The notes under the pieces were generated by a model. It searched no databases, was not told where the DNA came from, and was given only the letters and a program-made list of their open reading frames with translations. 64,000 bases of DNA from Bilabrum cf. latius (lineage: Eukaryota), in contig OZ237736.1 in assembly GCA_965178125.1 (NCBI GenBank), positions 1,302,001 to 1,366,000 of the forward strand, read 5' to 3'. The position numbers and the translations under genes are program-made. How positions within the stretch are numbered: position 1 is the first letter of the stretch; the number at the start of each line of letters is the position of its first letter. This document shows positions 1 through 57,661 of this stretch, in pieces.

Positions 1-2385
1 CAGCCTGGCTTCCTGCAGCTTGCGCAGGGCGTCCTCTGGGACGAGATCGCCGGCCCGTTCGATGGTGGCCGCTGCGTCGTCGAATCTAGTTACCAGGAAC
101 TCCTCGGGAAAAATCTCGTCCAGCACTGTATTCGTAGACCCTGGATCGTCGTCATCCTCAGACTAGCTGTCCTCATCACCGTTGTTTCCGTTCTGCCGCA
201 GAGACACGACTGCCGCGGCAATCATACGCTGTAGGGAAGGCACCTGCGTCGAGCCGTCATACTTAACCCCCAGCGCAATGGCTTCGTCGACACTGCGTTC
301 CACGCCTGCCTGCTTGATAACTCTTGAACCTCGCCTCTTCACCTCTAGCAGGCACGCAAGTTCGGCTGCGAGGAGTGCAACCGCCTGTGGCTTGCTCACG
401 GCGAGAGACACGAGCCGACGGGCCGTCGGGCCGCCGAACTGCATCATGTCTTTGTACGAGTCTGCGGCAATCGACTCGGCCGTGATCTTTGTGGCTGTGG
501 ATCGATCGCTCTGGCTGCTGCCACCGTCGCTTGGGGCCTGAAGGACACCCGCCGACACGATCTCACGGAGGGCGGCATCGCCACTCGGGAGCCCCATCGA
601 GATGAGCGTGTCGAACGCGGCGTGAGCATCCGACAGCGACCGCCGCAATTTGTTTCGCTGTGCTTTGAGGCGCGTACGAGACATCCAGGCCTCATGGGAG
701 CCGGATAGTTTCTCCATGCGCGCCAATGCCCTCGCCCTGATCCGTTCCTTCCGCCTGCCCTCTGATGCATCGGCGTAGAAATGCCCGGTCGTGTCAAACT
801 CAACCTGGGCAGGAAACACGATGGTTCCAACAACTTCCCGCACAAAGTCTTCTTCGAGTTTTTGCATCATGCGGCGTGCCTATCGTCCAGCAGCAGCAAT
901 TGATTCGCTAAAGTCACCTGGTGACAGTAGTCCGGATGCTAGCGCCTCCGCTTGCAAGTCACACTTCCGAATGGCATCAAGGGCTGCACTGCGCTGGTCA
1001 TTCAGCTGTTTTGCCTACTTTGCAGGCAGCGGAGTGAACCGGAACAGGGTTGCTCCTGTGGCGTGAATTATCGGGCTGTCGTGCGAACCCGAGCTGCCCA
1101 AGCCTTGCGCCCGCCAAAACTCGGGACGGAAGTCGACAGGATACCGTTTGTTCTCGATCCTACGAGCTCGGCGAATCTACTCTGCAGACATCTTCGCTGC
1201 CCTTTTACCCCTGCCTGATACTTTATCCTTGCCCTTGTCATCGCCCTCGCTTCCCTACGGCCCAGTGGAGCCCACTCCCGGTTGCTTTTCCCAATCTGCG
1301 CCCCCGAGAGCATACATGGCCCGCGCGAACCCGGCGTAGTACGAGAATTGCACATAGGCGTCTGCAAGCCAGATCTGCCCGGCCTCTAGCCGAGGCACCT
1401 CGTCGCTTGCCACTGAGTCGAAGCTGGACTCGGAGGAGGAGTCGTCCACGGCGGGCCCCTCTCCTCCCAGTGCCTCTTCCCCGCGTGGCGGGTCTGCACT
1501 GGAGTCCAGCATGGAGCTCTTGCCAGTGGCAGATCCCAGTCCTTCATCCTCTCGCCTACTTTGCCTCTCTCGCAAAGCTCTCCCAGCCCCTGATGATGCC
1601 CCTGCGGCATCCACGATATCGACCGAGCTGCGCCGCCCCCGCCGCACCGCCGCGCAGCCAGCAGTTGCAGCAGAGTTCCCAGCGGTCTGTGCTGCGCGGA
1701 ATGGCACCACATCAGCGTTGGAAACTCGACCAAACCGAGTAAAAAATGCCTTCATGATTCGAGCACAGCCCTTGATTTCGTCTTCGCTGAGCACGTCAGG
1801 CGTGCCAGCTTCCAAGCCCGTCGTGCTGGTTGGACGCCAACCGAGCGCTTCAAGAGGAATGCTCCGAAGCACGATGGTATCTGGGCGGGATCCCGAAGAG
1901 CCACCGATAAACGCACGATCCATGAGCTATGTCAGCCTGTCTTTGGCTTTCTTTGCGTACAGCGATTCGAGGTCTCCCGGACGTGCAGCCTTCCTGGCTT
2001 TGCGCGGGTCTACTCCCATCGCTTTCAGCTGAGCCAATAAACCTCCCTGTACGGCTTCCATTTTTGTTTGCAGACCAGGAGAAAATGTTTCGAGCCAATC
2101 CCACTGCCTGGGTGCTTCAACTGCTGCAACGACCGAGCTCGAATCCCTTGTCTCCTTAAAAAACATTTCGAGCTGGTTCACCGCCGCATCGCGCTTGTCT
2201 GGCCTGCTAAAGTCCACAACTACACCATTTTGATACATGGACACCCATGTTGACACAACATCAGCCAGATCTACACCGATTCCGTCCAAGAGCTGCAGCA
2301 CTGATGCCTGCGCATGAGTGCTGTTGATTTTTGCAGCTACGTGGGAGCAGTACAGTCGAAAGCTCGGCCGAAGTTGAAGGGACAT
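1..2385 (-). CDS. Hypothetical protein, 3' end runs off the window start (TAG=Gln)
   Basis: ORF-track pieces 1927-2385, 1255-1923 and 163-870 share one frame and are separated only by TAG (1927, 1255, 1177, 1015, 880, 163). No TAA/TGA down to base 1. An in-frame TAA at 2389 lies just upstream of the ATG at 2385. No recognisable domain. Confidence 0.7.
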
Positions 2386-2671
2386 GAGTTATGTGTCAGC
2401 TCGTGCAGGGCTTGCGATACTGCATTCCATCCAACGGGACAAGGAGCCCCAATCTGATCTGGTCCAACAGACACTTTGGTTGTTCGCACTCCGAGTTGTG
2501 GCCACTGGTGGCACCACCGTGATGATGATGATGATGGCATGTCTGGTGGGAGTGCATGCATTCCACGCTTTGTTACAGAACAACTAGAATGGCCAGGTCA
2601 CTTACGAGGCAGAGGCAACGACAGCCATTTTCAAGATCTGTGCATATCTGAAGCCACCCCACCCCCGAAGC

Positions 2672-22863: not shown

Positions 22864-25032
22864 TCACACCAGCAGCTCCATGTGGTGGGTGGTGAGGTAC
22901 CCGTACAGCACCACGACGCAGAACTGCTTGTAGGTGATCTCGCCCTCCACGCCAAGATCCTTGCACACGCTGTCCTTGAGCTCGAACAGGAACTTGCTGG
23001 GGTCCTTGGAGCGCTCCTCGTACATGCCCTTGATCTGGGCCTTGTTCTCGTCGTTCACCTCCTGACCAAAGCAACGCAGCAGCTTCTCCAGGCGCTCCTC
23101 CTTAGCCAAGACGTAGTCGATGGACGACTTGTACACGTGGGTCAGGCACTCGTCCAGCTTGTCGCCCTTGATGGTCTTGGTGCCCTCGGGGTCGTAAGTC
23201 TCGAAGGTCGCGTCGATGCGTGGCTTGAGCTTGTAGGCCTTGAGGTGGGAGGCAGCCTCCTTGGCCATGCCGGGCTTAAGGGAGTTACCGGAGTACTTGC
23301 CGGCCTCCAGGTCAGCGACAAAGTTGTTCACGATCGTCTGGAAGTGGGAATGGGACACGTGGATGGCGCCGGCGATCTCGTGCGCGTCGCACAGGTCGGG
23401 GCGCGCGAGCAAGTGGATGGCCAGGGCAAGGCGCAGGAACTCCGTCCTGGAGATCTTGTGGTCGTGGTTCGCGTCCACGTCATCCACAACGTGCTGCAGC
23501 TGCTTCTCGATGTCCGAGAAGGAGGCAGAGGCGAGCTCCTCGAGGGCGGCCTTGGCGGCGTCTGCAGCCTCCTTGGCGGTGTGCTCCGTGAGATGCCTGA
23601 TCTCGGAGGCATCCTCGAGGATGTCCTTGGACACGGTGCCCACCACGCCGTGCATCAGCTTGGCCACCTCATCGCCGTCCACCTCACCGCTCCCGTCCTC
23701 GTCGAACTTGTCGAACTCGATGGAGACCTTGGACATGAAGGGGATGTTGCGCAGGTACTGGCGAGCGGCAGACACGCGGTGCTTGGGGATGCGCATCGAG
23801 TGCCAGCGGCCAGCGGCCAGGTCATCCACGAGCATGTCAGCCACGGCGTCCTCGTACGTGAAGCCCACGCCGACGGAGTGCCCGAGCTCGGCGAGGTCGG
23901 GGCGGTGGATGGCAAGGGTGACGGCCAGGGCGTACCGCAGGAACTCCACGCGGGTCACGCGCCCCTCGTGCTTCTCCACGTCACGGAGGACCTTGTGCGA
24001 GACCTTCTTGACGTCATCATCGCCCATCTTGGCGATCTTCTCGAACTCGGCGCGGGCCAGCGCGATGGCCTCCTCGTCGTCAGCGGCAGAGAAATCGGGG
24101 TGCGACTTCACGTACAGCCTCAGGATGCGGTCCGAGTTGGCGGCCGTCTCCGCGGCGTCCTTGAGCACAGTTCCCACCATGGCATCGAGCTCCTTGCCGT
24201 CAATGAAGCCGGACTTGTCCTCGTCGAGGGCGTCGAACTGCTTCTCCAGGAAAGACACGATCTCGAGGTGCTCCAGGAACTCCACAGCCGCCGCCTTCTT
24301 TGCGGGGCGCAGGTAGACAGAGCGGAATACTCCCTGCGTCGATGAGTGAAGGGGCAAAGAAATGACAAATTTTAAGACACAATCTGCACAGATTGCGAGC
24401 ACAGCTTGAGGGACAGTACACCAAAGCCACAGCACAGCGTAAGCAACTCAGATCCGTACGAAACCTATTCAACACAGCACCAGTGAAAACCCATTCAGCA
24501 CAATTCTATGACAAAATCAGCTCGTGGGGGGCGAGCATCTCGACTACGCGACCTCAAACTGCGGACGCTCGGGTTACACTAGGTGCAGATCCTGATAGCG
24601 AGTCTGCTGTTGAAGCGGATCCAAGGCCCACCAACACTTCCAGATTCAATCAACATTTTAAAACTATTCACGTGGTACACTTGCCGAAGTATCACTCAGC
24701 TTCGAGTTTTTCAAAGCCACCGTTCTCACGGTCCAATTCCCTCAACCGCGCGGCGATCCAAGCACTTCAGGAGCGCATTCTCCAGCTTAAAGCAGGGCCA
24801 GAACCAAATCAAACTGGCAAATTTTCACAGTTGAATTGTCAAATTCCACATTGCAGGCTAGGAGACATGTACATATCCAGGCAACACATGACTGAGCGGC
24901 CCAATCACTTGCAAATCACTTCAGTACCTGTGGAGCGTCTCTCACCTTAGAAAGGTCCTTAGCAAGGCCCTCGATGATACCCTTGAGTGCATGATGCACG
25001 CGAGCAGAGTCAGCACCAGCAACTGCGGCCAT
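22864..25032 (-). CDS. EF-hand calcium-binding protein built from three ~170-aa repeats; complement(join(22864..24333,24946..25032))
   Basis: EF loops DEDKSGFIDGKE, DEDGSGEVDGDE, DANHDHKISRTE, DPEGTKTIKGDK. Splicing intron 24945-24334 (GTGAGA...ACGCAG, phase 0) makes exon 1 align with the internal repeats (DLSK|GVFRS vs DLAAGRWHS vs DLEAGKYSG). Strong GC3 bias, no TAG, TGA at 22864. Confidence 0.85.
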
Positions 25033-29527: not shown

Positions 29528-32500
29528 TTACTTCCAGCCGCCGTACTGGGTGGTAGTCGACCAGCTTGCCAAGGCGCTCTAGGCTCTTTCTAGCACCAAC
29601 CTATTCTCTTCTTCTACCGCTGATGATGCGCGTACCTCTTTGCTACCAGGTTTCTTAATGTAAGGCGTCTAGTCGAACAAACGCGTAGATTGCAGCCTTT
29701 TGTTCCGCTCGACAGTCTCTGCAAGGCACCGCCGCAAGTGCTCCGACTCTGCCCTTGCAGCCTGCTCGCTCCCACTCGCGAGCATGGCGAGCACTTCATA
29801 CTCCCTCTCGAACGGCTGCACGCTCACACATGACGCTGGCTCGAATCGCGAAGATGGATCATCCGAGACCTGCATCAATTCGGGTGCCAGCGGATGACTG
29901 TCGTCTTCTCTGGTAGTTTTACCTGGCACAGTCACTTGCTGTGCGACCGCACTGTGACTCCCACGACCACCAAAATAATCTGGACCCCTAGACAGCCCAG
30001 CAAACTTACCCAGCTCGGGTACTTCCGGTGATGACGGCATGATACTGGAATCGCCCGGAGCCTACTGCGACACACTAATGCTACAGCATCCATCCTAGCC
30101 AGTCGTGCCAATATGCCTACTGTCCAACTATACCTTCTCCTACTCAGAACCACGGCAAATTATTGGACCAGCACAACGTCTAAGCTTACCTTGTCGATAT
30201 AACCGAACTTGGTTCTACGAAACAGAACGAAGAGCAGCCAGCTCGGCCTGCAGCTTGCTCTCGCTCGCCTGCCCATCGGCCACAGCCTGCTCATTTGCCG
30301 CCTTGGCCGCTGCCAGCTCGGCCTGCAGCTTGCTCTCGCTCGCCTGCCCATCGGCCACAGCCTGCTCATGCGCCGCCTTGGCCGCTGCCAGCTCGGCCTG
30401 CAGCTTGCTCTCGCTCGCCTGCCCATCGGCCACAGCCTGCTCATGCGCCGCCTTGGCCGCTGCCAGCTCGGCCTGAAGAGACTCGGACTTCGATCGAGCC
30501 GCATCGATCTCGCGACGCAGCTCGTCAGTGCTAGTGCTGCCGTCAGCCACAGCCTGCTCATGTGCCGCCTTGGCCGCTGCCAGCTCGGCCTGAAGAGACT
30601 CGGACTTCGATCGAGCCGCGTCGATCTCGCGACGCAGCTCGTCAGTGCTAGTGCTGCCGTCAGCCACAGCCTGCTCATGTGCCGCCTTGGCCGCTGCCAG
30701 CTCGGCCTGCAGCTTGCTCTCGCTCGCCTGCCCATCGCCCACAGCCTGCTCATGCGCCGCCTTGGCCGCTGCCAGCTCGGCCTGCAGCTTGCTCTCGCTC
30801 GCCTGCCCATCGGCCACAGCCTGCTCATGTGCCGCCTTGGCCGCTGCCAGCTCGGCCTGCAGCTTGCTCTCGCTCGCCTGCCCATCGGCCACAGCCTGCT
30901 CATGTGCCGCCTTGGCCGCTGCCAGCTCAGCCTCGAGAGACTCGGACTTCGATCGAGCCGCATCGATCTTGCGACGCAGCTCGTCAGTGCTAGTGCTGCC
31001 GTCAGCCACAGCCTGCTCATGTGCCGCCTTGGCCGCTGCCAGCTCGGCCTGCAGCTTGCTCTCGCTCGCCTGCCCATCGGCCACAGCCTGCTCATGTGCC
31101 GCCTTGGCCGCTGCCAGCTCGGCCTGCAGCTTGCTCTCGCTCGCCTGCCCATCGGCCACAGCCTGCTCATGTGCCGCCTTGGCCGCTGCCAGCTCGGCCT
31201 GCAGCTTGCTCTCGCTCGCCTGCCCATCGGCCACAGCCTGCTCATGCGCCGCCTTGGCCGCTGCCAGCTCGGCCTGAAGAGACTCGGACTTCGATCGAGC
31301 CGCATCGATCTCGCGACGCAGCTCGTCAGTGCTAGTGCTGCCGTCAGCCACAGCCTGCTCATGTGCCGCCTTGGCCGCTGCCAGCTCGGCCTGCAGCTTG
31401 CTCTCGCTCGCCTGCCCATCGGCCACAGCCTGCTCATGTGCCGCCTTGGCCGCTGCCAGCTCGGCCTGCAGCTTGCTCTCGCTCGCCTGCCCATCGGCCA
31501 CAGCCTGCTCATGCGCCGCCTTGGCCGCTGCCAGCTCGGCCTGAAGAGACTCGGACTTCGATCGAGCCGCATCGATCTCGCGACGCAGCTCGTCAGTGCT
31601 AGTGCTGCCGTCAGCCACAGCCTGCTCATGTGCCGCCTTGGCCGCTGCCAGCTCGGCCTGCAGCTTGCTCTCGCTCGCCTGCCCATCGGCCACAGCCTGC
31701 TCATGCGCCGCCTTGGCCGCTGCCAGCTCGGCCTGCAGCTTGCTCTCGCTCGCCTGCCCATCGGCCACAGCCTGCTCATGTGCCGCCTTGGCCGCTGCCA
31801 GCTCGGCCTGCAGCTTGCTCTCGCTCGCCTGCCCATCGGCCACAGCCTGCTCATGCGCCGCCTTGGCCGCTGCCAGCTCGGCCTGAAGAGACTCGGACTT
31901 CGATCGAGCCGCATCGATCTCGCGACGCAGCTCGTCAGTGCTAGTGCTGCCGTCAGCCACAGCCTGCTCATGTGCCGCCTTGGCCGCTGCCAGCTCGGCC
32001 TGCAGCTTGCTCTCGCTCGCCTGCCCATCGGCCACAGCCTGCTCATGCGCCGCCTTGGCCGCTGCCAGCTCGGCCTGCAGCTTGCTCTCGCTCGCCTGCC
32101 CATCGGCCACAGCCTGCTCATGCGCCGCCTTGGCCGCTGCCAGCTCGGCCTGCAGCTTGCTCTCGCTCGCCTGCCCATCGGCCACAGCCTGCTCATGCGC
32201 CGCCTTGGCCGCTGCCAGCTCGGCCTGCAGCTTGCTCTCGCTCGCCTGCCCATCGGCCACAGCCTACTCATGTGCCGCCTTGGCCGCTGCCAGCTCGGCC
32301 TGCAGCTTGCTCTCGCTCGCCTGCCCATCGGCCACAGCCTGCTCATGTGCCGCCTTGGCCGCTGCCAGCTCGGCCTGCAGCTTGCTCTCGCTCGCCTGCC
32401 CATCGGCCACAGCCTGCTCATGCGCCGCCTTGGTTGCTGCCAGCTCGGCCTGCAGCTTACTCTCGCTCGCCTGCCCATCGGCCACAGCCTGCTCATGCGT

Positions 32501-35500
32501 CGCCTTGGCCGCTGCCAGCTCGGCCTGCAGCTTGCTCTCGCTCGCCTGCCCATCGGCCACAGCCTGCTCATGCGCCGCCTTGGCCGCTGCCAGCTCGGCC
32601 TGCAGCTTGCTCTCGCTCGCCTGCCCATCGGCCACAGCCTGCTCATGTGCCGCCTTGGCCGCTACCAGCTCGGCCTGCAGCTTGCTCTCGCTCGCCTGCC
32701 CATCGGCCACAGCCTGCTCATGCGCCGCCTTGGCCGCTGCCAGCTCGGCCTCAAGAGACTCGGACTTTGATCGAGCCGCATCGATCTCGCGACGCAGCTC
32801 GTCAGTGCTAGTGCTGCCGTCCGCCACAGCCTGCTCATGTGCCGCCTTGGCCGCTGCCAGCTCGGCCTGCAGCTTGCTCTCGCTCGCCTGCCCATCGGCC
32901 ACAGCCTGCTCATGCGCCGCCTTGGCCGCTGCCAGCTCGGCCTGCAGCTTGCTCTCGCTCGCCTGCCCATCGGCCACAGCCTGCTCATGCGCCGCCTTGG
33001 CCGCTGCCAGCTCGGCCTGCAGCTTGCTCTCGCTCGCCTGCCCATCGGCCACAGCCTGCTCATGTGCCGCCTTGGCCGCTGCCAGCTCGGCCTGCAGCTT
33101 GCTCTCGCTCGCCTGCCCATCGGCCACAGCCTGCTCATGTGCCGCCTTGGCCGCTGCCAGCTCGGCCTGCAGCTTGCTCTCGCTCGCCTGCCCATCGGCC
33201 ACAGCCTGCTCATGCGCCGCCTTGGCCGCTGCCAGCTCGGCCTGCAGCTTACTCTCGCTCGCCTGCCCATCGGCCACAGCCTGCTCATGCGCCGCCTTGG
33301 CCGCTGCCAGCTCGGCCTGCAGCTTGCTCTCGCTCGCCTGCCCATCGGCCACAGCCTGCTCATGCGCCGCCTTGGCCGCTGCCAGCTCGGCCTGCAGCTT
33401 GCTCTCGCTCGCCTGCCCATCGGCCACAGCCTGCTCATGTGCCGCCTTGGCCGCTGCCAGCTCGGCCTGCAGCTTGCTCTCGCTCGCCTACCAATCGGCC
33501 ACAGCCTGCTCATGTGCCGCCTTGGCCGCTGCCAGCTCGGCCTCAAGAGACTCGGACTTCGATCGAGCCGCATCGATCTCGCGACGCAGCTCGTCAGTGC
33601 TAGTGCTGCCGTCAGCCACAGCCTGCTCATGTACCGCCTTGGCCGCTGCCAGCTCGGCCTGCAGCTTGCTCTCGCTCGCCTGCCCATCGGCCACAGCCTG
33701 CTCATGTGCCGCCTTGGCCGCTGCCAGCTCGGCCTGCAGCTTGCTCTCGCTCGCCTGCCCATCGGCCACAGCCTGCTCATGCGCCGCCTTGGCCGCTGCC
33801 AGCTCGGCCTGCAGCTTGCTCTCGCTCGCCTGCCCATCGGCCACAGCCTGCTCATGCGCCGCCTTGGCCGCTGCCAGCTCGGCCTGCAGCTTGCTCTCGC
33901 TCGCCTGCCCATCGGCCACAGCCTGCTCATGCGCCGCCTTGGCCGCTGCCAGCTCGGCCTGCAGCTTGCTCTCGCTCGCCTGCCCATCGGCCACAGCCTG
34001 CTCATGTGCCGCCTTGGCCGCTGCCAGCTCGGCCTGCAGCTTGCTCTCGCTCACCTGCCCATCGGCCACAGCCTGCTCATGTGCCGCCTTGGCCGCTGCC
34101 AGCTCGGCCTCAAGAGACTCGGACTTCGATCGAGCCGCATCGATCTCGCGACGCAGCTCGTCAGTGCTAGTGCTGCCGTCAGCCACAGCCTGCTCATGTG
34201 CCACCTTGGCCGCTGCCAGCTCGGCCTGCAGCTTGCTCTCGCTCGCCTGCCCATCGGCCACAGCCTGCTCATGTGCCGCCTTGGCCGCTGCCAGCTCGGC
34301 CTGCAGCTTGCTCTCGCTCGCCTGCCCATCGGCCACAGCCTGCTCATGCGCCGCCTTGGCCGCTGCCAGCTCGGCCTGCAGCTTGCTCTCGCTCGCCTGC
34401 CCATCGCCCACAGCCTGCTCATGCGCCGCCTTGGCCGCTGCCAGCTCGGCCTGCAGCTTGCTCTCGCTCGCCTGCCCATCGGCCACAGCCTGCTCATGCG
34501 CCGCCTTGGCCGCTGCCAGCTCGGCCTGCAGCTTACTCTCGCTCGCCTGCCCATCGGCCACAGCCTGCTCATGCGCCGCCTTGGCCGCTACCAGCTCGGC
34601 CTGCAGCTTACTCTCGCTCGCCTGCCCATCGGCCACAGCCTGCTCATGTACCGCCTTGGCCGCTGCCAGCTCGGCCTCAAGAGACTCGGACTACGATCGA
34701 GCCGCATCGATCTCGCGACGCAGCTCGTCAGTGCTAGTGCTGCCGTCAGCCACAGCCTGCTCATGTGCCACCTTGGCCGCTGCCAGCTCGGCCTGCAGCT
34801 TGCTCTCGCTCGCCTGCCCATCGGCCACAGCCTGCTCATGCGCCGCCTTGGCCGCTGCCAGCTCGGCCTGCAGCTTGCTCTCGCTCGCCTGCCCATCGGC
34901 CACAGCCTGCTCATGCGCCGCCTTGGCCGCTGCCAGCTCGGCCTGCAGCTTGCTCTCGCTCGCCTGCCCATCGCCCACAGCCTGCTCATGCGCCGCCTTG
35001 GCCGCTGCCAGCTCGGCCTGCAGCTTGCTCTCGCTCGCCTGCCCATCGGCCACAGCCTGCTCATGCGCCGCCTTGGCCGCTGCCAGCTCGGCCTGCAGCT
35101 TACTCTCGCTCGCCTGCCCATCGGCCACAGCCTGCTCATGTGCCGCCTTGGCCGCTGCCAGCTCGGCCTGCAGCTTGCTCTCGCTCGCCTGCCCATCGGC
35201 CACAGCCTGCTCATGTGCCGCCTTGGCCGCTGCCAGCTCGGCCTGCAGCTTGCTCTCGCTCGCCTGCCCATCGGCCACAGCCTGCTCATGTGCCGCCTTG
35301 GCCGCTGCCAGCTCGGCCTGCAGCTTGCTCTCGCTCGCCTGCCCATCGGCCACAGCCTGCTCATGCGCCGCCTTGGCCGCTGCCAGCTCGGCCTGCAGCT
35401 TGCTCTCGCTCGCCTGCCCATCGGCCACAGCCTGCTCATGCGCCGCCTTGGCCGCTGCCAGCTCGGCCTGCAGCTTGCTCTCGCTCGCCTGCCCATCGGC

Positions 35501-38500
35501 CACAGCCTGCTCATGTGCCGCCTTGGCCGCTGCCAGCTCGGCCTGCAGCTTGCTCTCGCTCGCCTGCCCATCGGCCACAGCCTGCTCATGTGCCGCCTTG
35601 GCCGCTGCCAGCTCGGCCTGCAGCTTGCTCTCGCTCGCCTGCCCATCGGCCACAGCCTGCTCATGCGCCGCCTTGGCCGCTGCCAGCTCGGCCTGCAGCT
35701 TGCTCTCGCTCGCCTGCCCATCGGCCACAGCCTGCTCATGTGCCGCCTTGGCCGCTGCCAGCTCGGCCTGCAGCTTGCTCTCGCTCGCCTGCCCATCGGC
35801 CACAGCCTGCTCATGCGCCGCCTTGGCCGTTGCCAGCTCGGCCTGCAGCTTGCTCTCGGTCTTCTATTTCTCATCAATACTTTTGTCGCGTGCTGCCGAG
35901 GCTGCATCCAAGGAAAGTTTGGCTGTAGCGAGTTGACCCATCAGTTTCTGAATCTCAGTTGTAAGCTTTGCCTCCTTGCTGTTGCGCTCATGTGCCGCCT
36001 TAGCCTGCATCTCCTCGAACTGTCTACGAGCATATTGCAGGTCGGCGTACGCCGGAGATCGTGTCTTGTCGTCCTCGACGGTTTCCGCAGCAACGATACC
36101 GGAGCAGCCTAGCCTGCCAAATCGCGCGTCAAACCACGCCAATCGAGCCGTAGTACGTTCCAAGTCTACAGTTACACGTTCCAAGTGCTTGCCGAGCATG
36201 GCAGACTACCCTTTGGCTGTCTTCAGCTACTCTGCCAACTTCTTGATGTCTGCTTCCTTGGCTCGCAGCAGCTTCCTCATCTCAGCTGGCGACAGATCTG
36301 CATTGACGCGAGGCTTAGTAACCATCTTCTTGGCTCTCAATGCAAACCGAAGCGTGCTGATGGTCTCGTCCCTGTTCCACGAGGAAGGGGAACAAGCTAC
36401 CAGCAGGCTCGTTCGGCTGTTGCCACCTAGCGACTCTTGCAGGATCCGGGTTAATTTCGAGTCGCGATACGGAACGTGGGTTGAAGAAGACTCCGTCAGC
36501 GCGTAGATACACATGCCTAATGTGGTCAGCGAAAGGTTGATCTTCTTTGCCTCATCAAATCGTATTCCTGATGCCTGGGATTTGCCAACTTTCTCACTGC
36601 CAGCCAGGTCGACAAGCGTTAGCACGGACCGCTTGGTCACAAATGTGTCAAGCCGTTTCTGCCTGACAGTCAGGAAGAGCAGACTGTGGCTTCGGGAGGA
36701 ATGCTGGTTCATCTACGTAGCCGCAGTCGTTCGGTTGGCCTGTCCTTCGTGCAGCCGGTGCACCACCTCCTCTGCACTCACCACGAAGTGGCGCGTGGCT
36801 CCAGAGATCCTTGCGGTTTTGTCCTTAGGATCTTCCCGAATCTCTAAGTCTGCCTTTTGGGGGTTAAACAGATCCTTCACTCGCTCCATATACAGCTCCA
36901 CCATCTCTAGCTGCACCGTGAAATCAATATTTTCCGGTGCCGCTGCGATGTGTTCGAAGATCGCATTGGCTGCACGATACACTAGGCCAGCCTGGCCTGG
37001 GCCTGACTTGCCCTCCATAGAGAATGTTTTTCCGGCTCCAGTCTATCCATACGCCAGGATGGCACCGTTGTATCCGTTCAACACGCCTTCGACAACGGGT
37101 TTACCCACCGTTTCATAGACATCAACCTGCGAGGCCGTTGGCGGGATGACACCATCCAGGTGAACCGGCGGGATCCGGTCTGATGGATCCATAGCCTTGA
37201 TCTCCTCTAGCTATTCTTCAGGAGAGGCAAGGGGGGCAGTAGACGCCTGCCCGCGGGCGGCACTAGCCGCGCCTGATACCACGCTTGCGGCCCCCTCGTG
37301 GTATCGATCGTTTCGCTATCCGTAGACCAGCACAGTCTGTTTGTTATCGTCAAATTCTACGCAATAGCGCCCACCCTCTCTTTCCTCCTTGCTATTCTAA
37401 GGCCTAAATCGGGCAAACACGCGTACTCTATCGCGCCCTTTCTGCTCGCCGGGCGGGGCGAGCTAGTCCTGAAGCGTAGCTACGTCACCGACTACCGTGC
37501 CAGCCTCGGAATCAATGACAGAGGCAGCGTATTCCTTCGCCTTTCGAATCGACTCAACCACGCTACCAGTCCGGCTTGACGCGCCGAGGGGAGTGCGATA
37601 CCCACCCGAATCAGCAGCAGCAGCGGCGACGTAAGGGAGACTGAGCTGACTGCCTGCACCACTTGCCGCGGCCAAAGACCTGCGCGGTTCAGGCGTGAGC
37701 AACGCACTACTGTCTTGCTTAGGATCTAGATTCGCCGCAGTCTCCTCTCGATGTTTGCCCGCCTGCGAGCTAATTGGGTGCGAAAGTGCATCTGCGTCTT
37801 CCTATGCTTGCCGGAGCTAACCCACCAGGGCATCACAAGCCTCTGCTGCTACGTCCGGCGACTGCGGCACGGACTCATGGCGCTGCAAGGACTCTGCACG
37901 CCTGCTTGCAGTTGGAACCTCGCTTAGAGCAGCAGCAGTGAGCCCGACAGGACGGTCTAGGACCCTCTAGTCGCTGGTCTGCGCCTACTAGGAGCCATCG
38001 CTTGGAACTTTTTGCACGTCCATCGGAATTGCAGCATGGACCTATTGGTCTCTCATCGGAAGGGACTCGCGACGGTCCGAGAGGCGCCCGGGTGATCCGC
38101 CAGGGAAGCTTTCTCGTGGTGGGGCTGCCACTGATGCAGACGACATGCCCTTTTGAAGAAAGTGGGACGCAGACATGACCGACCGCGCTGCCATGGAGCC
38201 AGTAGACTGTGCGTCGTCATCGCGATAGAAGTAAGCATCGTCTCGTCGTGCAGCCAGTGCCTCCTCGAGGTCAGCAGCCTGGCGAATCTCCACAACCTGC
38301 TCCTCCTCGTCGCCCGCCCTGCCAGCCCCGTGCTCTACGCGGAACGCGTGTGGTCCGTCCGCCTCTGCTGCGCCATCCTCTTTGGCGAGCGTCTGTGTGC
38401 CACCACCCTGGTGATATTGAGAACCACTACCTACTCCGCCTGGTCGGAGCACTGCGTGGCTCTGACTGCCCCTCATCACCGCGGCACTGCTCTGCCTGCG

Positions 38501-39454
38501 GGCTGACCGCTAGCCTGCCTGCGAGCCAGACGCTCTGGAGCCTGCCAAGGGTCGACTCTGCCCAGGATTTGAGACCCCAGGCCGGCTTGCATCCGCGGCG
38601 GACAGTCTTCTGCTATCAGCGTTGGATGGACGGGTTGGGACCTCGGCAGCTGCGGCTGGTTGCTGACGCCTTAGCTGCGACCCAGATGCACCAGCAAGTC
38701 CACCGGACGAGCGATGGTTCCCGCCACTGGCAGCGCCCGTGTCGGTCTCAGGGACCGTCGAGAGACCCACAGCCGCAGCAGTACCTGTTGATCGTCTAGT
38801 ACTGCCTCGCAGAGAGCCTCGACTAGACTTGAGCTGCCCAGTGGACGCAGCGTGCTTCAAAGCGATCTGGCCGGCTCGGGAGGAAGCACCGGATCCATGC
38901 AGCACCCGACCGCCTACACTTGATTGTTTGGTGCCGGTGCGGTGGGTTCCTCCTTGTTCCGAAAGACGGATTCTCGTCGACACTCCTCTGAGTTGCTGTC
39001 TGGACGCTTCCTGTCCGGAACCGTTCGACTTCAATGATAACTTCGATTTGACCGACGACAAGGAACCTACCCTTCTTGCACCGCTTGGCCTGCGACCGGT
39101 GGCAGACCCGGTGGGTAAGAGACTTGCACTAGACTCGTGCTTACTCAGGATGCCGCTAAGGAGCCGTGCTTGTGCGGCATTGGCGCTACTAGTTTTACCT
39201 GAGGGGCGCCGAGGAGGCACCCCAGAGGACGTCCCTCTCGCCTTGGCGCTCACTGCACTACTAGATGACACTCCAGATTTGGTCCTCGACATTCTCCGGC
39301 TGTCCCCTCCGCGACCAGATAGTGAGACTTTCCCAGTTGCAGTACTGGATCGACTCAGCGTTGAAGAAGCTGTGCCTCCAAGTCGTCTCTTTGCACTCTG
39401 TCCTCCAGCGGAATCAACTCCTTCACTACTATGAGCTTCGGGTGCCCCTTGCAT
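29528..39454 (-). CDS. Giant kinesin (kinesin-1-like motor, ~3300 aa) with long N-terminal extension and repetitive coiled-coil stalk
   Basis: Motor at about 36300-37430: VRVFARFRP[TAG]N, GYNGAILAYG[TAG]TGAGKT, ELYMERVKDL, MNQHSSRSH, LVDLAGSEK, INLSLTTLG, HVPYRDSKLTRILQESLGGNSRT, ETISTLRFA. One frame from ATG 39454 to TAA 29528 with about 26 TAGs. A small intron near 30000-30190 cannot be excluded. Confidence 0.9.
30236..35862 (-). repeat. 5.6-kb coding tandem array of ~60 75-bp units (25 aa) interspersed with 10 117-bp units (39 aa)
   Basis: Units ADGQASESKLQAELAAAKAAHEQAV and ADGSTSTDELRREIDAARSKSESL(Q/E)AELAAAKAAHEQAV. Copies are near-identical. Confidence 0.97.
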
Positions 39455-39589
39455 ATTTCACTTGTGCGGGGAAGATGGTGTGGGCTTAAGACTTTGAAGA
39501 CATTAACTCGGTGGCTAGCGGAACATCCGTCGGTGGATTGGAGCGCGCGGCGCCAGCAACCACGTGAACGGACCTCCACAAAGACAGGC

Positions 39590-41395
39590 ATGGGAAATGT
39601 GTGCGGGCCTTCATTAGATGATCCTTTTGGTGGCAATGCACAGTTGATATGGTTGGCGGCCGACAGGTCAACCCCTGGTCCAATCCGAGCTATCTTGAAG
39701 CGACTTGTGCTCGACAGCCAGTCGGCTGCAAATCTCTTCACTGTATCCGCCACACGATGGCAAGCGTAGAATGCATCGACCCGGTCGTCAGCCGGCGATA
39801 TCTTAAACAGGAATCCAAAGATGAAGGTGCGAGTTGAGACCGTCGAAAGGCTCGAAGGGGAAGCGAATCTTGCCTGCAAAGGCGAGCAGAGCGATCGGGA
39901 AGCTAGCCTGCAGCGATTTACGGCGCAGCTTGCATCGGAGGCTGGTAAAGACCCGCACATATGCGTGGGGCTTCTTGTCGACTTTTTGCATAAGCTGGAC
40001 TAGCCACTTTTGTCTCCGCACGCCGGGGACTTTGGGGCGTTCGTTGCCTCAGTTAAGCGGCCTAGCCTTGCGCAACGGCTCGTGGCAGTTCGAGCTGCGT
40101 TGTCCAGGCTCCCAGCTGGGCATTTGGCTATTGCCAAGTCTGTTTTCTCCACGCTTCGCGACTGCATTGATTCTTCCAGCGGAGGCTCGAAGTCCGCTGG
40201 TCTTGGGGAGCTCGCCCGCAGCGAGGCGGCTCGAGGCGGCGAGGACGATGCTTCGCTGGACGAGGCACAGAGCGCTCGTGCTGATGCGCCGTAGTCAGAA
40301 GTACGGCCATCGCGAGGCGTGCTGTCCAGCCGGGCGATCGCTGGGGTGCTCGCGCCCATCATGCTAGAACGCGTGCTGATCGACGCAGCTGACGTGGACC
40401 ACATCGACACGCGGCCGGACGAGCGGTTCCTGGCATCAGAGGTGGTGCGCCTGCTGATAGAGTACTGCGACGCGGCATTTGGCCGCGCAAATGAGGAGGA
40501 CATGGAGGAGCTGCTCGCCCAGGTGGCTGACCTGCAGGCGGGCATCGAGGCCGAGCGCTTCAAGACCAGGCAGAGGGAGCGCGAGCTGGCCCAGGTGGAG
40601 GAGCGGAGGGTCGTCAGCGCGCGGGTGGCGCTGGACCGGCAGATGATGCGCAGGGTGATTTCTGCGTGGGGTCGCACGGCACAGCGCAGCCGCGGCAGGA
40701 TGGCCCTCCACGATAGGGTGCGGCTCCTGTCTGAGCTGCTGGACCACCAGGCGAGGATTGCGGCCCACAAAGACAGGCTGCTGGAGCGTCTGGCGGCGGA
40801 GACAGGGAACACTGCGATGCTGACCAGGCTTCAGGAGAAAGGGCTGCTGGCCCCTTCGGCAGAGCAGGACCCGTCTACGCCTGGAGGAACACCAAGTGCG
40901 GCTGCATCAGGTGCCGGCGCCAGTGCGGCCGATGCTTCCGCCTCCGTCTCTGCAGCAGCGACGGCCATGCAGGAAAGCAAGCAGGGTGAGCATGGACATG
41001 GGGACTTCCGTGGACCGGCCTACAGAGAGAACGCCCCTGCGCCACTCCACGGCTAGCCATCATCATCATCATCGTCTTCTACCACCCGGGCAGTGCCGTC
41101 TAGCTATGCCGCAGGCCGGTTGAGCATGCCGCCCATGGATTCGCCCGTGCTGCGTCAGCAGGCAGCAAGGTGGCAGCAGCAGCCGCCTCTTCCTGCCAGC
41201 GAGGAGGCTGCGGGCATCGCAGGCAGCTCCAGTGCCGATGCAGGCAAGGGTCGGGCAGCTTCGGTCGAAATCGATGCATCAAGACTGCCTGATGCCCCTT
41301 AGTATAACCACGCCAGCGCAGCGAAATCGTCCGCAGCTGCCCCGCAGCCGCAGCAGAGGGGTCCCCCCAGGAGAGCCCCAGAGGCAGCGACATGA
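39590..41395 (+). CDS. RhoGAP-domain protein, putatively N-myristoylated/palmitoylated, with coiled coil
   Basis: Starts MGNVCG. Motifs ANLFTVSA, DPHICVGLLVDFLHKLD[TAG]PLL, RLVAVRAALSRLP, AIAGVLAPIML, VVRLLIEYCDAAF match the RhoGAP pattern. 5 TAGs; TGA at 41393. Confidence 0.7.
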
Positions 41396-41478
41396 TTGAT
41401 TGTGGCAGCGGCCCCGCAGCCGCAGCAGAGGGGTCCCCCAAGGAGAGCCCCAGAGGCAGCGACATGATTGATTGTGGC
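41339..41478 (+). repeat. 72-bp-period tandem duplication spanning the RhoGAP stop codon
   Basis: 41339-41406 and 41411-41478 are near-identical (GCCCCGCAGCCGCAGCAGAGGGGTCCCCC...GACATGATTGATTGTGGC). Confidence 0.9.
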
Positions 41479-41530
41479 CTACGGATTGTTCATGTTTGAA
41501 TGCTCGAACGATATCATTCGTGCTTTTTGG

Positions 41531-43435
41531 TCAATCGACCCGAGCTGCCTTTGCTTTGGGAGCATCTGAGCCATCGCCCGCGTCCCCCGCTGACCCCGTC
41601 GCTCCCGAGCTACCACTACCTGCACCGCCAGATGCAGCACCAGTACCATCTCTCTGGGCTCGCTTGCCTCCAATCACTGGAGCACCCTCCCTTGCCCTTG
41701 CTTCTGCCGCCCGCACGGCCCCGTTCACGCCCGCAATCACCCCGCCCAGCTTGTTCATCGTTTCCTCGTACTCATCCGAGGGCACCGAGTCGAACACGAT
41801 ACCGCCCCCGGCCTGCAGATGCAGCACGCCGTCGTGCACCCACACGGTGCGGATCGCGATGGCGGTGTCCAAGTCACCGTTGTATCCGAATGAACCCACC
41901 GCTCCGCCGTAAATGTACCGCCGTTCCGGTTCAAGCCCAGCCACGAGCTCGACGGCTCTCACCTTGGGCGCACCCGAAAGGGTGCCTGCAGGGAAGATCG
42001 ACTTAAACGCGTCCAGAGCCGTCTTGCCCTCTGCCAACCTGCCAGAGACCTTGGACACGATGTGCATGACGTGCGAGTACATCTCAACGCCCATGAGGGA
42101 ATCCACCTTGACGGACCCGGGCGCGGCCACTCGCCCGACATCGTTTCGCCCCAGGTCCACCAGCATGATGTGCTCAGCCCTCTCCTTCTCGTCCGAGAGC
42201 AGGTCCTTCTTCAGCGCCTCGTCCTCCGCCGGCCCCTTGCCTCTTTTTCTCGTTCCCGCGATGGGGTGCGTCTGCACCACGCCGGCCTCCACCTTACAGA
42301 GCATCTCCGGCGACGCCCCAGCGATGCTGGTGCCCTCTCCCATGTCTACGTAGAACATGTAGGGGCTCGGGTTCACGATGCGGAGGTGCCTGTACAGGTC
42401 GAACGCGGTGAGACCCTCAGGCAAGGGCCGCGAGAGCCTGTGGGAGGGCACGGCCTGGATGATGTCTCCAGCCACGATGTGCTTCTTGAGCGACCTCACG
42501 TAGCCCTCGTAGCCCGCCCTACCGGCGTTTGACGTGGCCTCCCAGGCCTCCCTCGTCAGCGAGCTGCCGCTGGAGCTGCCAGCAGAGGGGGGGCGCTTTG
42601 GGCTTGCTGGGGCGGCGTCCACGGGGCGACCGCGCTCGATCTTCCGCACGATGTCGGCGATGCGGGCGCGAGCCGCTTCGTAGGCGGCTGCGAGCTGCTC
42701 GCCTACCTTGGTGCCGCCCGCGCCCGAGGCGGCTGCCGCACTGGACGAAGATGAATGACCGCTTGGTGACACACTGGACGCACTGGGCAGCTAGCACTGA
42801 GTGAGCACCTTGAGCGTGTGCCTGGCGTGATCGAACACGACCACGCTGTCGACAAACATGAACGCAGCCTCAGGCATTTTCAGGGGATCGGCCTGCTTTT
42901 CTATGGTTGCAGACGTCCGCGGCTCAAAGTGGCGGATACAATCATACGTAACAAATCCCATGGCGCCGCCAGAGAAGCCGGGAAGGTCAATACGTACTCC
43001 AATGGCCGAAAGATCGAGCTGCTTGTGCTTGCTAAGCTCGGCCTGCAGCACCTCGGTTGGGTCTCCTTCAGCATCAAAGCCCTTGCCCGTGCGGATAACT
43101 TTCCGAGGATTTGTTCCAATGATGGAGTACCGGCCACGTGTTTCTCCGCCCTCGACAGATTCTAGCAGAAACGAGTGGTGCCCTTGTCGCAGCTTTAGGA
43201 AAACACCAACCGGCGTCTCTAGATCGGCTGCAAACTCTCTGCGAGCAAGCATTCATTCCACGTATTGCCACCGCAGAGTACAGAGCAGCAGTTAACGGGA
43301 CACTGGCGACGCAAAAACAACTTCTCACTGGAACACAGGGACCGTGGTGGCTGCCACGTCGCTTGAGGCCGCCTTCGCGATCACGTCTACCGGCGGAACG
43401 ATGGAACCAACTCGAGGGAGTGAAAATCCACTCAT
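41531..43435 (-). CDS. trpE: Anthranilate synthase component I; complement(join(41531..43238,43329..43435))
   Basis: Motifs [100 protein letters not shown]. Intron 43328-43239 (GTGAGA...TCGCAG). One TAG at 42791; TGA at 41531. Confidence 0.95.
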
Positions 43436-43575
43436 ATTTTTTGCACTGGCACAGTCCCACTTGATTTCTGCCGACAATTAGCAGAATTCGTGGTCTATGA
43501 TAAATGGATGACGAGTGGGCTCCGCACAGATGCATCTTTTTCGTTGCTAGCACCGCATAGACAAGTATTTTCTGC

Positions 43576-44742
43576 ATGAAGTGTCAACTCGCAAATAAAA
43601 TAATGTGCTATTCAGGCACTGGATGTGTTGCCCTTTGCATGTGTGCCTTAGGCCTGCTGCTTCTGGAAGGGAGCGTGCAGCTTAGTTGCACTTCAGGGGC
43701 TAGATCCGATACTGTCGTCGTAACCGGAGCCTCCAGCGGAATCGGGGCAGAGTTAGCTCAGCAGTATTGCAGATAGGGCAGCAGCGTGGTTCTGGCAGCG
43801 AGAAGAAAGGAGAAGCTGTAGCGTATAGTTGAGTACTGCAATGACCTCCCAGGCCGAGCGGTCGCTGTCCGGTTCGACGCCGCGGAGAGAAATTCATCTC
43901 GTGGCCTGCTCTAGGCAGCGCTAGAGGCATTTGGTAGGGTCGATACGCTCGTGATCAACCACGCTATGTTCGACGATAGCGCTCTAGCAGAGTACCCTAC
44001 CACTGAAGCAGCTGCCTCGAGGCTTCGGTCCATGCTCGAGGTGAACACGGTCGCCCCGCTGAGCTTGGCCCTGGATTTTTTGCCCCATCTCAAAGGTACC
44101 GCTAGCCGGGCAGCGGGTCGCATCGCCTTCGTCTCGAGTGGCACGGCTAAGGCCGCCGCGCCCTTCCACGCACTGTACGCCTCCACCAAGCTGGCCATGC
44201 ACGGGGTGGCAGACACCCTGAGGGCCGAGCTGATGCTCCAAGACACTGCAAGGGCTATCATTAGCAGCGTTCCGGAGGAGCAATAGGCGGCTGCCCTGCA
44301 GGGCGCGGGGGGCCGGATTCGGATGGCACTGGCAACAGCCCCTTCTTTTTCCGTGCAAGTGCCCGGGGCTCAGCAGGCTGCCGGGGCGCATGGGACTTCC
44401 GCACCCAGCGTGTCACTGCTGGTGCTCGGCATGATTGGCACTCCGGAAGTGATGCAAGAGCCGCAGCTGCGCGCACTGGCCATGCCTGTGCCTGACTGCG
44501 CCTCCTCGATGGTGTGCGCGATCGACGCGAGGGCCAGGGAGGCATTCATACCGGGGTACCTCAGGATCTTCGTGGGTCTCGGCAGGATAGCGCCGCAGCT
44601 GACCGAGGGTATCATGCAGCTCATGTACACGCTGAATGTCGACCGGTACACCCAGTACCTGGTGCAGTCAGCTGCGAGCGAGACAATTGCAGGGACCGCT
44701 ACCAGCAGTGGCCAGGCAGCAAGCCACGGGGATGAGCTTTGA
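43576..44742 (+). CDS. Short-chain dehydrogenase/reductase (11-beta-HSD-like), N-terminal hydrophobic segment
   Basis: VVVTGASSGIG, VVLAARR, DTLVINHA, YASTK (YxxxK). TAGs at 43774, 43819, 43912 and 44284; TGA at 44740. The start may be ATG 43603. Confidence 0.9.
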
Positions 44743-44839
44743 AGACGGTACGGGCTTATCGGGACGGTAGTCGCTGGCCTTAATCTTGATTGAAACGAGC
44801 CAGCAAGCAGACTAAGATTTTTATTAATTCCAATCAGGA

Positions 44840-46129
44840 TCAGAGCGAGACATCGACCGCCTCGCTCTTGCTCTGCCTCCCCTCTCCCGAGCCAGCACCC
44901 CCAGATGCCGCGCCGTTGCTGGCAGAGCTGCACCCGCCCTCGCTGGTGCTGGCTCGCCTCCGCTACTTGGCCGCAGCTCTGCTCTGCAGGCTGCGGACAG
45001 GCGCCCCCGCGGCCTCGGCTGCCAGAAGCGATTCGTAGTCCTCGCGAGGCATTGCATCCAGCCTCGCGACCGCAGCGAGCAGCGCCCGGCTGGTGCCCGC
45101 GGCTGCCTACGTGCCATACCCTGCCGATGTCTCCCCTGCTGCCAGATCGTCTGCCAGTTTGTGAGCAATGGCTGGGTCTAGCTTCGGCGATGCCACGGCC
45201 ATGGCACTCCTGCCTAGCGCGTCCTCTGCCGCGATGGACGCGGTCGACATGGTGGAAAGGAGCGTTTCGGCGCACTTTGAGTGCCCGTGGAGGCAAGCCA
45301 CGTGCAGCGGTGTCCACCCGGCAGCATCCGCCAACTGGGCAGCCTCGGGTCCGTCCTCGTCCTGCAGCAGCTGCTCTAGCACTGCGTGTCTGCCCCCGGC
45401 TGCTGCATGGTGCAGGCACGTGCGTCCCTTCAGGTCCTAGCTGCAAGGGTCTGCTCCAATTTCGAGTAGGTACGTGACGACATCTTGGTGGCCCGCGTGC
45501 GCTGCGACCGCCAGCGGGCTCCAGCCTGTCTTGTCCGGGCAGTCCCAGTCACATGTGTCTCCAAACTTGTCGCTCATCTGCTGTAGGCACTCCAAGTTTC
45601 CACACTGTGAGGCATAGTGCATCGCAGTGTACCCCGCGGCGTCAGAGAATCCCGGGTGGCAGCCCCTTGACAACAGCTCTGTGACTGCTGCGGCCTCTCC
45701 CCTCGCAGCCGCCTGCCGCAGCCGCTCTCCAAACCGCACGTTTGGAGCAACGCACTAACAATACACGGACAAATACTCATCGCATGATATTAATCCATCG
45801 TCGTCCACTCGAGACAGGGCCGGTGATGACTCTACAAACGATGTGAACTACTCTGGGCCCATGCTCAGCCCAAGCGCTGATAGCAGCCCGGGGAGCTCGT
45901 GCCGGTCGATTGCACCGCTGCCATCCTTGTCGCATTGTGTAAACTACTATCTGGCCCTCTCAATAAGGTCCCGTGGGAGTGATGCCAGGACATGCTCGAG
46001 TCCATCGACAGTTCGAGAGGCAGCTTTCGCAGCAAGCTCCCGTCGTTGCTTCAGCTACTACTCCGCCTGTGCCTTCGCCTCAGCTTCTGCTTCGTTGGAT
46101 TTATCATCCTTCTTCTTCTTCTTCGGCAT
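44840..46129 (-). CDS. EF-hand plus ankyrin-repeat protein
   Basis: Starts MPKKKKK. EF-hand F-T-Q-C-DKDGSGAIDRHEL. Ankyrin repeats GYTAMHYA, GWSPLAVAA, S[TAG]DLKGRTCLHHAA, GWTPLHVAC. 9 TAGs; TGA at 44840. Confidence 0.85.
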
Positions 46130-46317
46130 GAGTACTGCTTCCAAACTCGAAATATTGGCTGCAGAAGTCTCCAGTCGAACGGTCACATGATGGTTTTGTG
46201 TGACGATGGATCCTCGGCTTATTATTTTTCCGAGCCAGGCTCTACAATTCGTCGAAATTATCAGCTTGAATCCAGCGACTCGCGTATTCAACTATATAGA
46301 TTCGCGTGGTATTCAAA

Positions 46318-56500: not shown

Positions 56501-57661
56501 GGAGTAGTACCTCTGCTGCACCGGGGCGAATGAGCCATCCCTGATGCACGCTCTACCGATGCCGCCAGAGGCGAGCATCACAGCACAGTGCCGCTCACCG
56601 GCAGACACGAACTGCGCGTCAGCGGCGAGGAGGCTAGGCACCGGGAGAGGCTCCGCATGCTGCCAGGCCCCCGTGGTGCCGATCCCCAGCTAGCCATGAT
56701 CATTGCGGCCCCATGTATACACGCAACCGCCCGAACCCAGCAGGATGGCATGGGAAGCCCCGGTCGACACCTGAACGACGCGCTCGTGGTCAATCCCAGT
56801 TAACCGGCGCGGGATCTGGGGCGGGCTGTACCTCGCCAGCCGAGTGCTCGTGTCTCCCCATTGCACCACCTCGCCCTGAGTCGTCACCACCGCGGTCTGT
56901 GATCTCCCCACAGAGACGGTTTCTGCTCGTGGGCTCCACTTCGCACTGGACCTGGAGCTGCTGCTCCCCCGTGCCCTGCCACTGGCAGCGGGGGCCGGTG
57001 CCGCAGCGCGCGCTTCCTTCACTCCGGACCCAGAATGCGTGGCAGCCAAGTCGACGCTGATGGGAAGCTCCGCAGCCTACTTTTCCCCGTGCCCGCTCTT
57101 GCTATCACGGGAGTAGGCAACATCGGCGCTCGCGGGAACAGAGCTGGCCTAGGCCTCGGCCAAATGCTTGGCTGATGCGGTGTCTATCTCGTGTGCTCGC
57201 TGGAACAGCCTGACCGGGGTGGGTACGAGTGCGATCTCGTCCACGCTGTTGACCGTGACACCGAGTTGCCCGTTTCGGTTGGACCCAAACACCATCAGCC
57301 GGCCGTCCCTCAGGACCACGGCCGTGTGCGAGGAGCCCACCGCGAGGCTGCACGCGTGCTGCGTCGCCAGTCCCGGGACCTTGGATGGCAACCCACCTGC
57401 GCTCGTCCCTGACGAGACGGCGCCAAACCTGTCGTCTCCAAATGTGTAGATAGCTCCAGCAGTCGAGATCGCCGCCCCATGATGGTCACCGAGAACAATC
57501 CTAGAGAGAGGCGTGGTAGGGAGCACCTGCTGCGGAGGGCTAAACACAACGGCCGGATCCGATTCATCCCCCACTCCACCCTTGCCGCTACTAAAATCCC
57601 CGACTGCCATGGATGAGCCATCCGTGAGCGATAACCCTAGAGTGTTGAGACCATGTGACAT
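50531..57661 (-). CDS. Large RCC1-repeat / BTB-like / RING-H2 protein (putative E3 ligase, ~2370 aa)
   Basis: Thirteen ORF pieces in one frame joined across about 17 TAGs. RCC1 repeats FGSNRNGQLG and WGRNDHG[TAG]LG, BTB-like AALAALVQYMYIG, RING-H2 CAVC..LECGHVFHCACVMEWI..CPVC. ATG at 57661, TAA at 50531. Confidence 0.8.

Follow-up and report, generated by a model that had tools for sequence, protein, structure and literature searches.

A probable reassignment of UAG to glutamine, with UAA and UGA kept as stop codons, in nuclear genes of a GC-rich eukaryote

Based on analysis of a 64,000-nt stretch of eukaryotic DNA (contig OZ237736.1 of assembly GCA_965178125.1, positions 1,302,001 to 1,366,000, here called the window), we found in-frame TAG codons in a kinesin gene and in most other long genes, and the nuclear code of this GC-rich eukaryote very probably reads UAG as glutamine (Gln), with UAA and UGA as stops. 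TAG is assigned to Gln because it stands in frame throughout intact genes, occupies Gln-specific positions, alternates with CAG in relatives and is present in RNA-derived contigs. The window has about 60% G+C and is gene-dense and intron-poor. Under the standard code it yields only fragments, whereas with TAG as a sense codon about 17 long genes appear on both strands. Pfam domains in these genes include kinesin, anthranilate synthase component I (TrpE), SepSecS, a patatin/DUF3336 lipase and RCC1 with RING, and further SDR, ankyrin with EF-hand, a cytosolic M14 carboxypeptidase and EGF repeats.

A sequence-only reading of the window had placed TAG codons in two conserved motifs of the kinesin motor, and both were reproduced exactly in position and context. 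On the minus strand, 37045-37043 is TAG within GYNGAILAYG-TAG-TGAGKT and 37399-37397 is TAG within VRVFARFRP-TAG-NSKE, as obtained by reading the reverse complement of 36000-38200 and translating it with TAG as Q. The two TAGs share one frame, which aligns with the Pfam Kinesin profile (PF00225) from position 1 to 326 of 327 at 333.3 bits (E 1.8e-99), in agreement with the earlier statement that the rest of the motor is intact. The curated cut-off of this family is 29.3 bits, and the cut-out motor scored 336.0 bits. Kinesin motors are recognised by a Walker A loop GQTxxGK[T/S], a switch I SSRSH and a switch II DLAGSE; this motor carries G-TAG-TGAGKT, SSRSHS and VDLAGSEK. Three more in-frame TAGs are found in the motor (37318-37316, 37213-37211 and 36715-36713), two of which lie within a lineage-specific insert. 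With regard to subfamily, the named matches of highest identity (51-53%) come from fungi, amoebozoans and an ancyromonad, one of them being named 'kinesin family protein 5', and about 680 residues precede the motor, which is unusual for kinesin-1, where the motor is N-terminal and a long coiled-coil stalk comes after it. From the sequence, the motor appears to be functional and kinesin-1-like, and both TAGs appear to serve in it as normal Gln codons, the one in the P-loop for the near-invariant Gln of Walker A.

In the window as a whole, 18 long frames with together 20,254 codons held 141 in-frame TAG, no TGA and no TAA. The same count over 20,236 codons gave 174 TAG, 278 TGA and 67 TAA in the +1 off-frame, and 188 TAG, 479 TGA and 92 TAA in the +2 off-frame. 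Because the frames were cut from one TAA or TGA to the next, the zero for these two codons holds by construction and the evidence resides in frame length: frames of 1,100 to 3,300 codons could not avoid TAA and TGA by chance at the off-frame rates. At least one TAG was present in 16 of the 17 complete frames (none in 22864-24447), so that annotation with the standard code truncates nearly all genes; six TAGs were present in 1..2388, which runs off the window. Counted from the first ATG, TAG accounts for 138 of 1028 Gln-type codons, together with 686 CAG and 204 CAA. Thirteen frames end at TGA and four at TAA, the remaining one being the frame that runs off the window, and no frame needs UAG as a terminator for its end.

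To avoid bias, the motor was written with X at each TAG when it was used as a query against 1.84 billion representatives. The best 150 kinesin representatives were aligned to it, which gave 223 aligned segments. At the P-loop TAG column Q was found in 157 of 158 aligned segments and S in one, with no E, K, R, L or Y, and after thinning to at most 70% identity Q was still found in 81 of 82. This column bears out the earlier claim that TAG is Gln, with the P-loop codon as its strongest single site. The companion claim, that TAG also stands for the Gln of RFRPQN, stood only in part: Gln is common at this column, but it does not dominate it (L 20, Q 19, E 7, S 3 and five others with 2 each; n = 59), and the column alone does not separate Gln from Leu. 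The column before switch I showed N 68, R 28, K 18, G 15, L 10, Q 4 and others. When PF00225 was scored with each of the 20 possible readings of TAG, a check proposed in the sequence-only reading, Q came out on top at 336.0 bits, followed by K (333.8), E and N (both 332.8), R (331.8), L (329.5), Y (329.2) and W (327.7), with X at 330.9; the lead of Q over K was only 2.2 bits. A second diagnostic TAG was found in another gene, in an RCC1 blade motif (Table 1). At this G-x-LG site the seven blades of UVR8 show Q, R, Q, N, Q, Q and Q, that is, Q in five of seven.

Additionally, close relatives were used to determine which residue TAG encodes. A scan of metagenome contigs with the motor gave locus L001 (2684 nt), whose kinesin aligns with residues 1-390 at 77% identity. 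In the motor core the two are 81% identical in amino acids, and their third codon positions are just 38% identical, from which we conclude that L001 and the window are well separated. The L001 frame contains nine TAG, no TAA and no TGA in 894 codons, and its P-loop codon is TAG, as in the window. Window TAGs are matched in L001 by CAG at 37465, 37399, 37213, 36229 and 36208, by TAG at 37318 and 37045 and by AAG at 36715. Since L001 has CAG at the RFRPxN site, that TAG too becomes evidence for Gln. Conversely, TAGs of L001 face the window codons CGG, CAG, GAA and CAC. Within well-aligned blocks there were ten unequal TAG pairs (Q 6, K 1, R 1, E 1, H 1) and two TAG/TAG pairs, and the exchange spectrum of canonical Q between window and L001 (Q 20, E 4, R 3, H 2, A 2, K 2 and so on) is the same as that of TAG. 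A likelihood test was performed on these blocks with the exchange spectrum that each residue shows between the two sequences. The log10 likelihoods for TAG were Q -6.67, H -12.2, R -13.3, K -13.5, E -13.6, Y -15.1 and L -22.7, and Gln was thus favoured by more than 10^5 over every other residue.

Runs X6 and X7 hold a nearer relative, about 90% identical across the 20 kb (36000-55999) compared; the runs containing it are labelled as algae and protist metagenomes. In this relative an A>G change on the plus strand at 36208 alters the first letter of a TAG codon, which thereby becomes CAG, and most of the other differences among the 40 listed, of 2044, fall on third positions. As the divergence in relatives is biased to third positions, the TAG-bearing frames are under purifying selection. 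Within the kinesin itself, the tandem units of the stalk show TAG in place of the CAG (Gln) of the unit at 32266 and 33490, and in place of AAG (Lys) at 34693.

A separate metagenome locus (L003:446-1252) encodes a kinesin of 35% identity that also has TAG at the P-loop Gln codon, with 11 TAA and four TAG in frame within 300 codons. By its codons it looks like an organism in which both UAR codons are Gln (the type of NCBI table 6), and it provided an unplanned positive control.

None of the matching runs is recorded as RNA; we took run X5 as RNA-derived because an intron is spliced out in it. An X5 contig joins 43238 to 43329 in the anthranilate synthase gene, and DNA run X1 is continuous there. 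The junction restores an N-terminal extension of anthranilate synthase that begins with Met, so that the true N-terminus sits in an upstream exon at about 43329-43440 and the ATG at 43252 falls within the intron. The depth of X5 varies several-fold between genes and that of X1 is flat. Over 36000-55999 no letter of X5 differs from the genome, and X5 record 9 spans 37128-37750 and so keeps TAG 37397-37399. Loss of the two motif codons from transcripts, which the sequence-only reading had named as grounds for abandoning Gln, was accordingly contradicted at the RFRPxN site; the P-loop codon is probably covered by X5 as well, judging from bin depth. In DNA runs X1-X4 all words sampled from 35900-38300 are present, and long pieces of X1 match 36000-55999 without change.

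Table 1. Positions of the kinesin gene, its TAG codons and related features in the window.
Feature	Position	Strand	Basis
Kinesin gene, stop-to-stop frame of 3309 codons ending at TAA, with 26 TAG and no TAA or TGA inside	29528..39457	-	frame scan
Kinesin motor domain PF00225, profile 1-326 of 327	36326..37411	-	Pfam
TAG at P-loop, AYG-TAG-TGAGKT; also TAG in relative L001	37043..37045	-	alignment columns
TAG in RFRP-TAG-N; CAG in L001; unchanged in X5 record 9	37397..37399	-	columns, relative, contig
TAG in lineage-specific insert, VYG-TAG-RND; also TAG in L001	37316..37318	-	alignment
TAG in insert, SPEE-TAG-LEE; CAG in L001	37211..37213	-	alignment
TAG before switch I, AAT-TAG-MNQHSSRSH, variable column; AAG in L001	36713..36715	-	alignment
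TAG just upstream of motor, TLQD-TAG-LAPP; CAG in L001	37463..37465	-	alignment
Two neck/stalk TAGs (36229-36227 and 36208-36206), each CAG in L001	36206..36229	-	alignment
Repeat array of the kinesin stalk, a 75-nt (25-aa) unit in about 74 tandem copies	30237..35858	-	repeat analysis
Diagnostic TAG outside the kinesin gene, in the RCC1 blade motif WGRNDHG-TAG-LGIG	56690..56692	-	UVR8 alignment
90-nt GT..AG intron of the anthranilate synthase gene, missing from run X5	43239..43328	-	missing from run X5

Several observations weigh against the reading of UAG as Gln. The X5 cover of the P-loop codon is deduced from a bin mean depth of 4.41, equal to that of single X5 contigs. In the comparison with L001, the eight TAG pairs in gappy parts, which were dropped from the likelihood test, are L, L, A, T, G, Y, K and S, none of them Q. 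A profile test on 10 alignable TAG columns placed Q first by just 1.2 bits over R, with L and Y worse by more than 20 bits, and when the P-loop column was removed R moved 1.9 bits ahead of Q. The TAG columns of SepSecS are dominated by E (11/12), D (9/12) and R (8/12), the TrpE column has R in 10/12 and the patatin column R in 14/38. As a control, canonical Gln codons of these proteins were examined: of their 41 columns, just 37% had Gln as the most frequent residue. The three sets, TrpE, SepSecS and patatin, do not discriminate Q from R, E or K and were not counted as support. The kinesin tail at 30217-29528 on the minus strand, 230 codons that follow the repeats, contains seven TAGs and no TAA or TGA; five of the seven are packed into 52 codons, a density about fourfold that of the window on average, and the G+C at first codon positions is 0.45 in the last 60 codons. 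This tail could be coding, an unrecognised intron, or an untranslated region behind a terminating TAG. Within the 64-kb window no tRNA gene was detected by ARAGORN and no match to Rfam was found, and no eRF1 or other release-factor family occurred among the 21 frames scanned against Pfam.

One further site of this kind concerns a RhoGAP-like domain in the frame 39365-41395 on the plus strand, where residue 213 is a TAG in KLD-TAG-PLL. RhoGAP domains usually carry Glu at that place (LPEPL), and going by this usual pattern it is the one motif-level site that speaks for Glu over Gln. The RhoGAP-like match is weak, at 23.3 bits under a Pfam cut-off of 24.5.

Among the alternatives, the meaning of UAG could depend on context, with Gln inside genes and termination near some 3' ends, as stop codons have context-dependent meanings in Condylostoma, karyorelicts and Blastocrithidia. 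The TAG-dense kinesin tail, with its low first-position G+C, could then be a 3' untranslated region past a terminating TAG. We consider this improbable: if the tail were non-coding, its 230 codons would be free of TAA and TGA by chance with a likelihood of about 0.002-0.03 at the off-frame rates, every complete frame reaches a TGA or a TAA, and no gene requires TAG as its end.

A code of the table 6 type, which has been reported for Amoeboaphelidium, hexamitin diplomonads and many ciliates, would make both UAG and UAA Gln and leave UGA as the sole stop, with UAA being rare because of GC-richness. It is consistent with TGA ending 13 of the 17 complete frames, with TAA being the rarest of the three triplets on both strands of the window (432, against 963 TAG and 1598 TGA), and with the modest lengthening that some frames gain when TAA is read as sense. 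This explanation too is quite improbable. From the A/G ratios of CAA/CAG, GAA/GAG and AAA/AAG, 35-46 internal TAA would be expected and none was observed in any of the 18 long frames, four of which end at TAA, and L001 likewise has none. Past the TAA ends of the kinesin, RCC1 and EGF genes, the three that were testable, G+C falls to 0.38-0.53 at all codon positions, and the frames beyond close after 75, 16 and 42 codons, respectively. Since G+C drops and the frames close soon past these ends, we conclude that TAA acts as a terminator in the 64 kb covered.

That UAG is sense but encodes a different residue, be it one of the polar look-alikes Glu, Lys and Arg, or Leu, Tyr or pyrrolysine, is very improbable. 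The E-, D- or R-dominated columns of SepSecS, TrpE and patatin, the slight advantage of R once the P-loop column is removed, and the near equality of L and Q at the RFRPxN column are all in line with it, but none of E, K, R, L or Y occurs at the P-loop column in 158 segments, PF00225 scoring places Q first, and in the L001 test Q leads H by 10^5.5, R, K and E by more than 10^6.6, Y by 10^8.4 and L by 10^16. TAG and CAG also replace each other between the window and two relatives, and at two Gln positions within the kinesin repeat, which points the same way. Pyrrolysine machinery is not known from eukaryotes, which was counted against that reading. Codes with UAG as Leu and with UAG as Glu are described for eukaryotes in PMC5304391 and PMC10553269, which lends the alternative residues some plausibility.

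Lastly, that the TAGs are not translated, but represent nonsense mutations of pseudogenes, sequencing errors, or sites removed by splicing or RNA editing, has nothing in its favour beyond TAG being a stop in the standard code and is almost certainly wrong, in view of the 141 TAG against no TAA and no TGA in frame, the third-position-biased divergence that indicates purifying selection, the presence of the sampled words in DNA runs X1-X4 with long X1 pieces unchanged over 36000-55999, the TAG at the same P-loop codon of L001 and the RNA-derived contigs that retain TAG 37397-37399.

If UAG is Gln, as we favour, the mechanism may be modelled on other lineages in which UAG or both UAR codons became Gln. 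UAG would be decoded by a tRNA-Gln with anticodon CUA, derived from tRNA-Gln(CUG), and eRF1 would have lost or weakened its recognition of UAG while keeping UAA and UGA.

The mapping equals NCBI table 15, and this type of code, with UAG alone as Gln, is already known but rare; the window adds a further eukaryote. Its closest counterpart is Iotanema spirale (Metamonada, Fornicata), for which Panek et al. 2017 (PMC5304391) describe UAG as Gln and UAA and UGA as stops. There too only UAG is reassigned, UAA and UGA terminate, and the evidence consists of in-frame UAG at conserved Gln positions (PMC5304391). The share of conserved columns dominated by Gln for canonical Gln codons, given there as about 40%, is similar to the 37% of our control. 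In contrast, the gene ends reported in that paper are 104 UAA and 15 UGA, whereas the window has 13 TGA and four TAA. On best matches the window genes are not fornicate-like, as TrpE goes with Cafeteria, and SepSecS and kinesin are nearest to opisthokont or amoebozoan proteins; this comparison did not involve Iotanema data directly.

Ciliate macronuclear genomes are AT-rich and prefer UAA as a stop. A ciliate identity was rejected for the window. It has 60% G+C and TGA as the commonest stop. This separates it from the UAG-reassigned ciliates, of which Hartmannula sinica, Trochilia petrani and Protocruzia tuzeti are described as having UAG as Gln with UAA kept as a stop (McGowan et al. 2024, PMC11687900); according to the same source the UAG-only change to Gln arose independently several times in ciliates.

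Another stop-to-Gln organism outside the ciliates is the algal parasitoid Amoeboaphelidium protococcarum (Aphelida), for which Karpov et al. 2013 reported TAG and TAA as Gln codons (cited in PMC5304391, PMC6299283 and PMC11687900). It shares with the window an association with algal cultures, as the relative of the window is in runs labelled algae, but Gln is reported there for both UAR codons, and in the window TAA ends genes. Its identity with the window organism was rejected: the Amoeboaphelidium genomes have 40.5% and 39.9% G+C (PMC10608142, Table 1), about 40% compared to about 60%, and three protein searches gave no close match of that name.

In the rhizarian exLh and some phyllopharyngean ciliates, UAG is reported as Leu and UAA as a stop (PMC5304391, PMC11687900), so that UAG is decoupled from UAA as in the window, but with a different residue. 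For the window, UAG as Leu was rejected, with Leu in none of 158 segments at the P-loop column and disfavoured by 10^16 in the L001 test. The same codon table is used by phages with TAG as Gln (code 15) and, as described in PMC13524828, by giant-virus metagenome-assembled genomes. Those are viral genomes, whereas the window is cellular, with a spliceosomal intron and long multi-domain eukaryotic genes.

A literature search, in which most subscription journals and supplements were outside the scope, found no GC-rich non-ciliate described with UAG alone as Gln besides Iotanema; there is weak evidence that the lineage is unpublished. In a TrpE tree (FastTree, 41 rows) the window protein was placed beside one further protein and Cafeteria roenbergensis, with support of 89-95. 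In a patatin tree it fell in a clade with one EukProt entry and proteins lacking names. The best named matches were fungi, amoebozoans and an ancyromonad for kinesin, as given above, and animals for SepSecS. We tentatively suggest that the window, the X6/X7 relative and L001 could belong to an undescribed GC-rich non-ciliate clade in which UAG was independently uncoupled from UAA and came to encode Gln. Should this be true, and should the grouping of TrpE with the bicosoecid Cafeteria reflect descent, this would be the first change of the nuclear code in a stramenopile. The anthranilate synthase gene may have a history of transfer and is therefore a weak guide to kinship. The gene lies at 41531-43252 on the minus strand, and its product falls in a group that Cafeteria and oomycetes share with Chloroflexi-type bacteria.

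Few nuclear codes give different meanings to UAG and UAA; the published accounts that we draw on name those of Iotanema, of a rhizarian, of Scotinosphaera and of a small number of ciliates. Such split codes show that eRF1 and tRNAs can tell the two codons apart. A GC-rich and apparently culturable lineage would be a further independent case, and DNA and RNA runs under organism names exist. It would allow study of how eRF1 loses UAG yet keeps UAA, and of TGA rather than TAA as the main stop.

Besides the genes discussed above, the window contains a SepSecS gene at 62630-63886 on the plus strand (PF05889, E 5.7e-97). From its presence it follows that the organism makes selenoproteins, and some in-frame TGA elsewhere in the genome should therefore encode selenocysteine. 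The end of the SepSecS frame is no longer SepSecS-like, probably owing to an intron at about 63785, and the TAA at the frame end may lie in an intron. The frame 4841-6547 on the plus strand has a long run of 9-residue repeats, PQHQPAAQA, at 5400-5950. The next frame, 6253-8676, carries C2H2 zinc fingers and starts within the first, and the two frames may be one gene that is split by an intron or a frame change.

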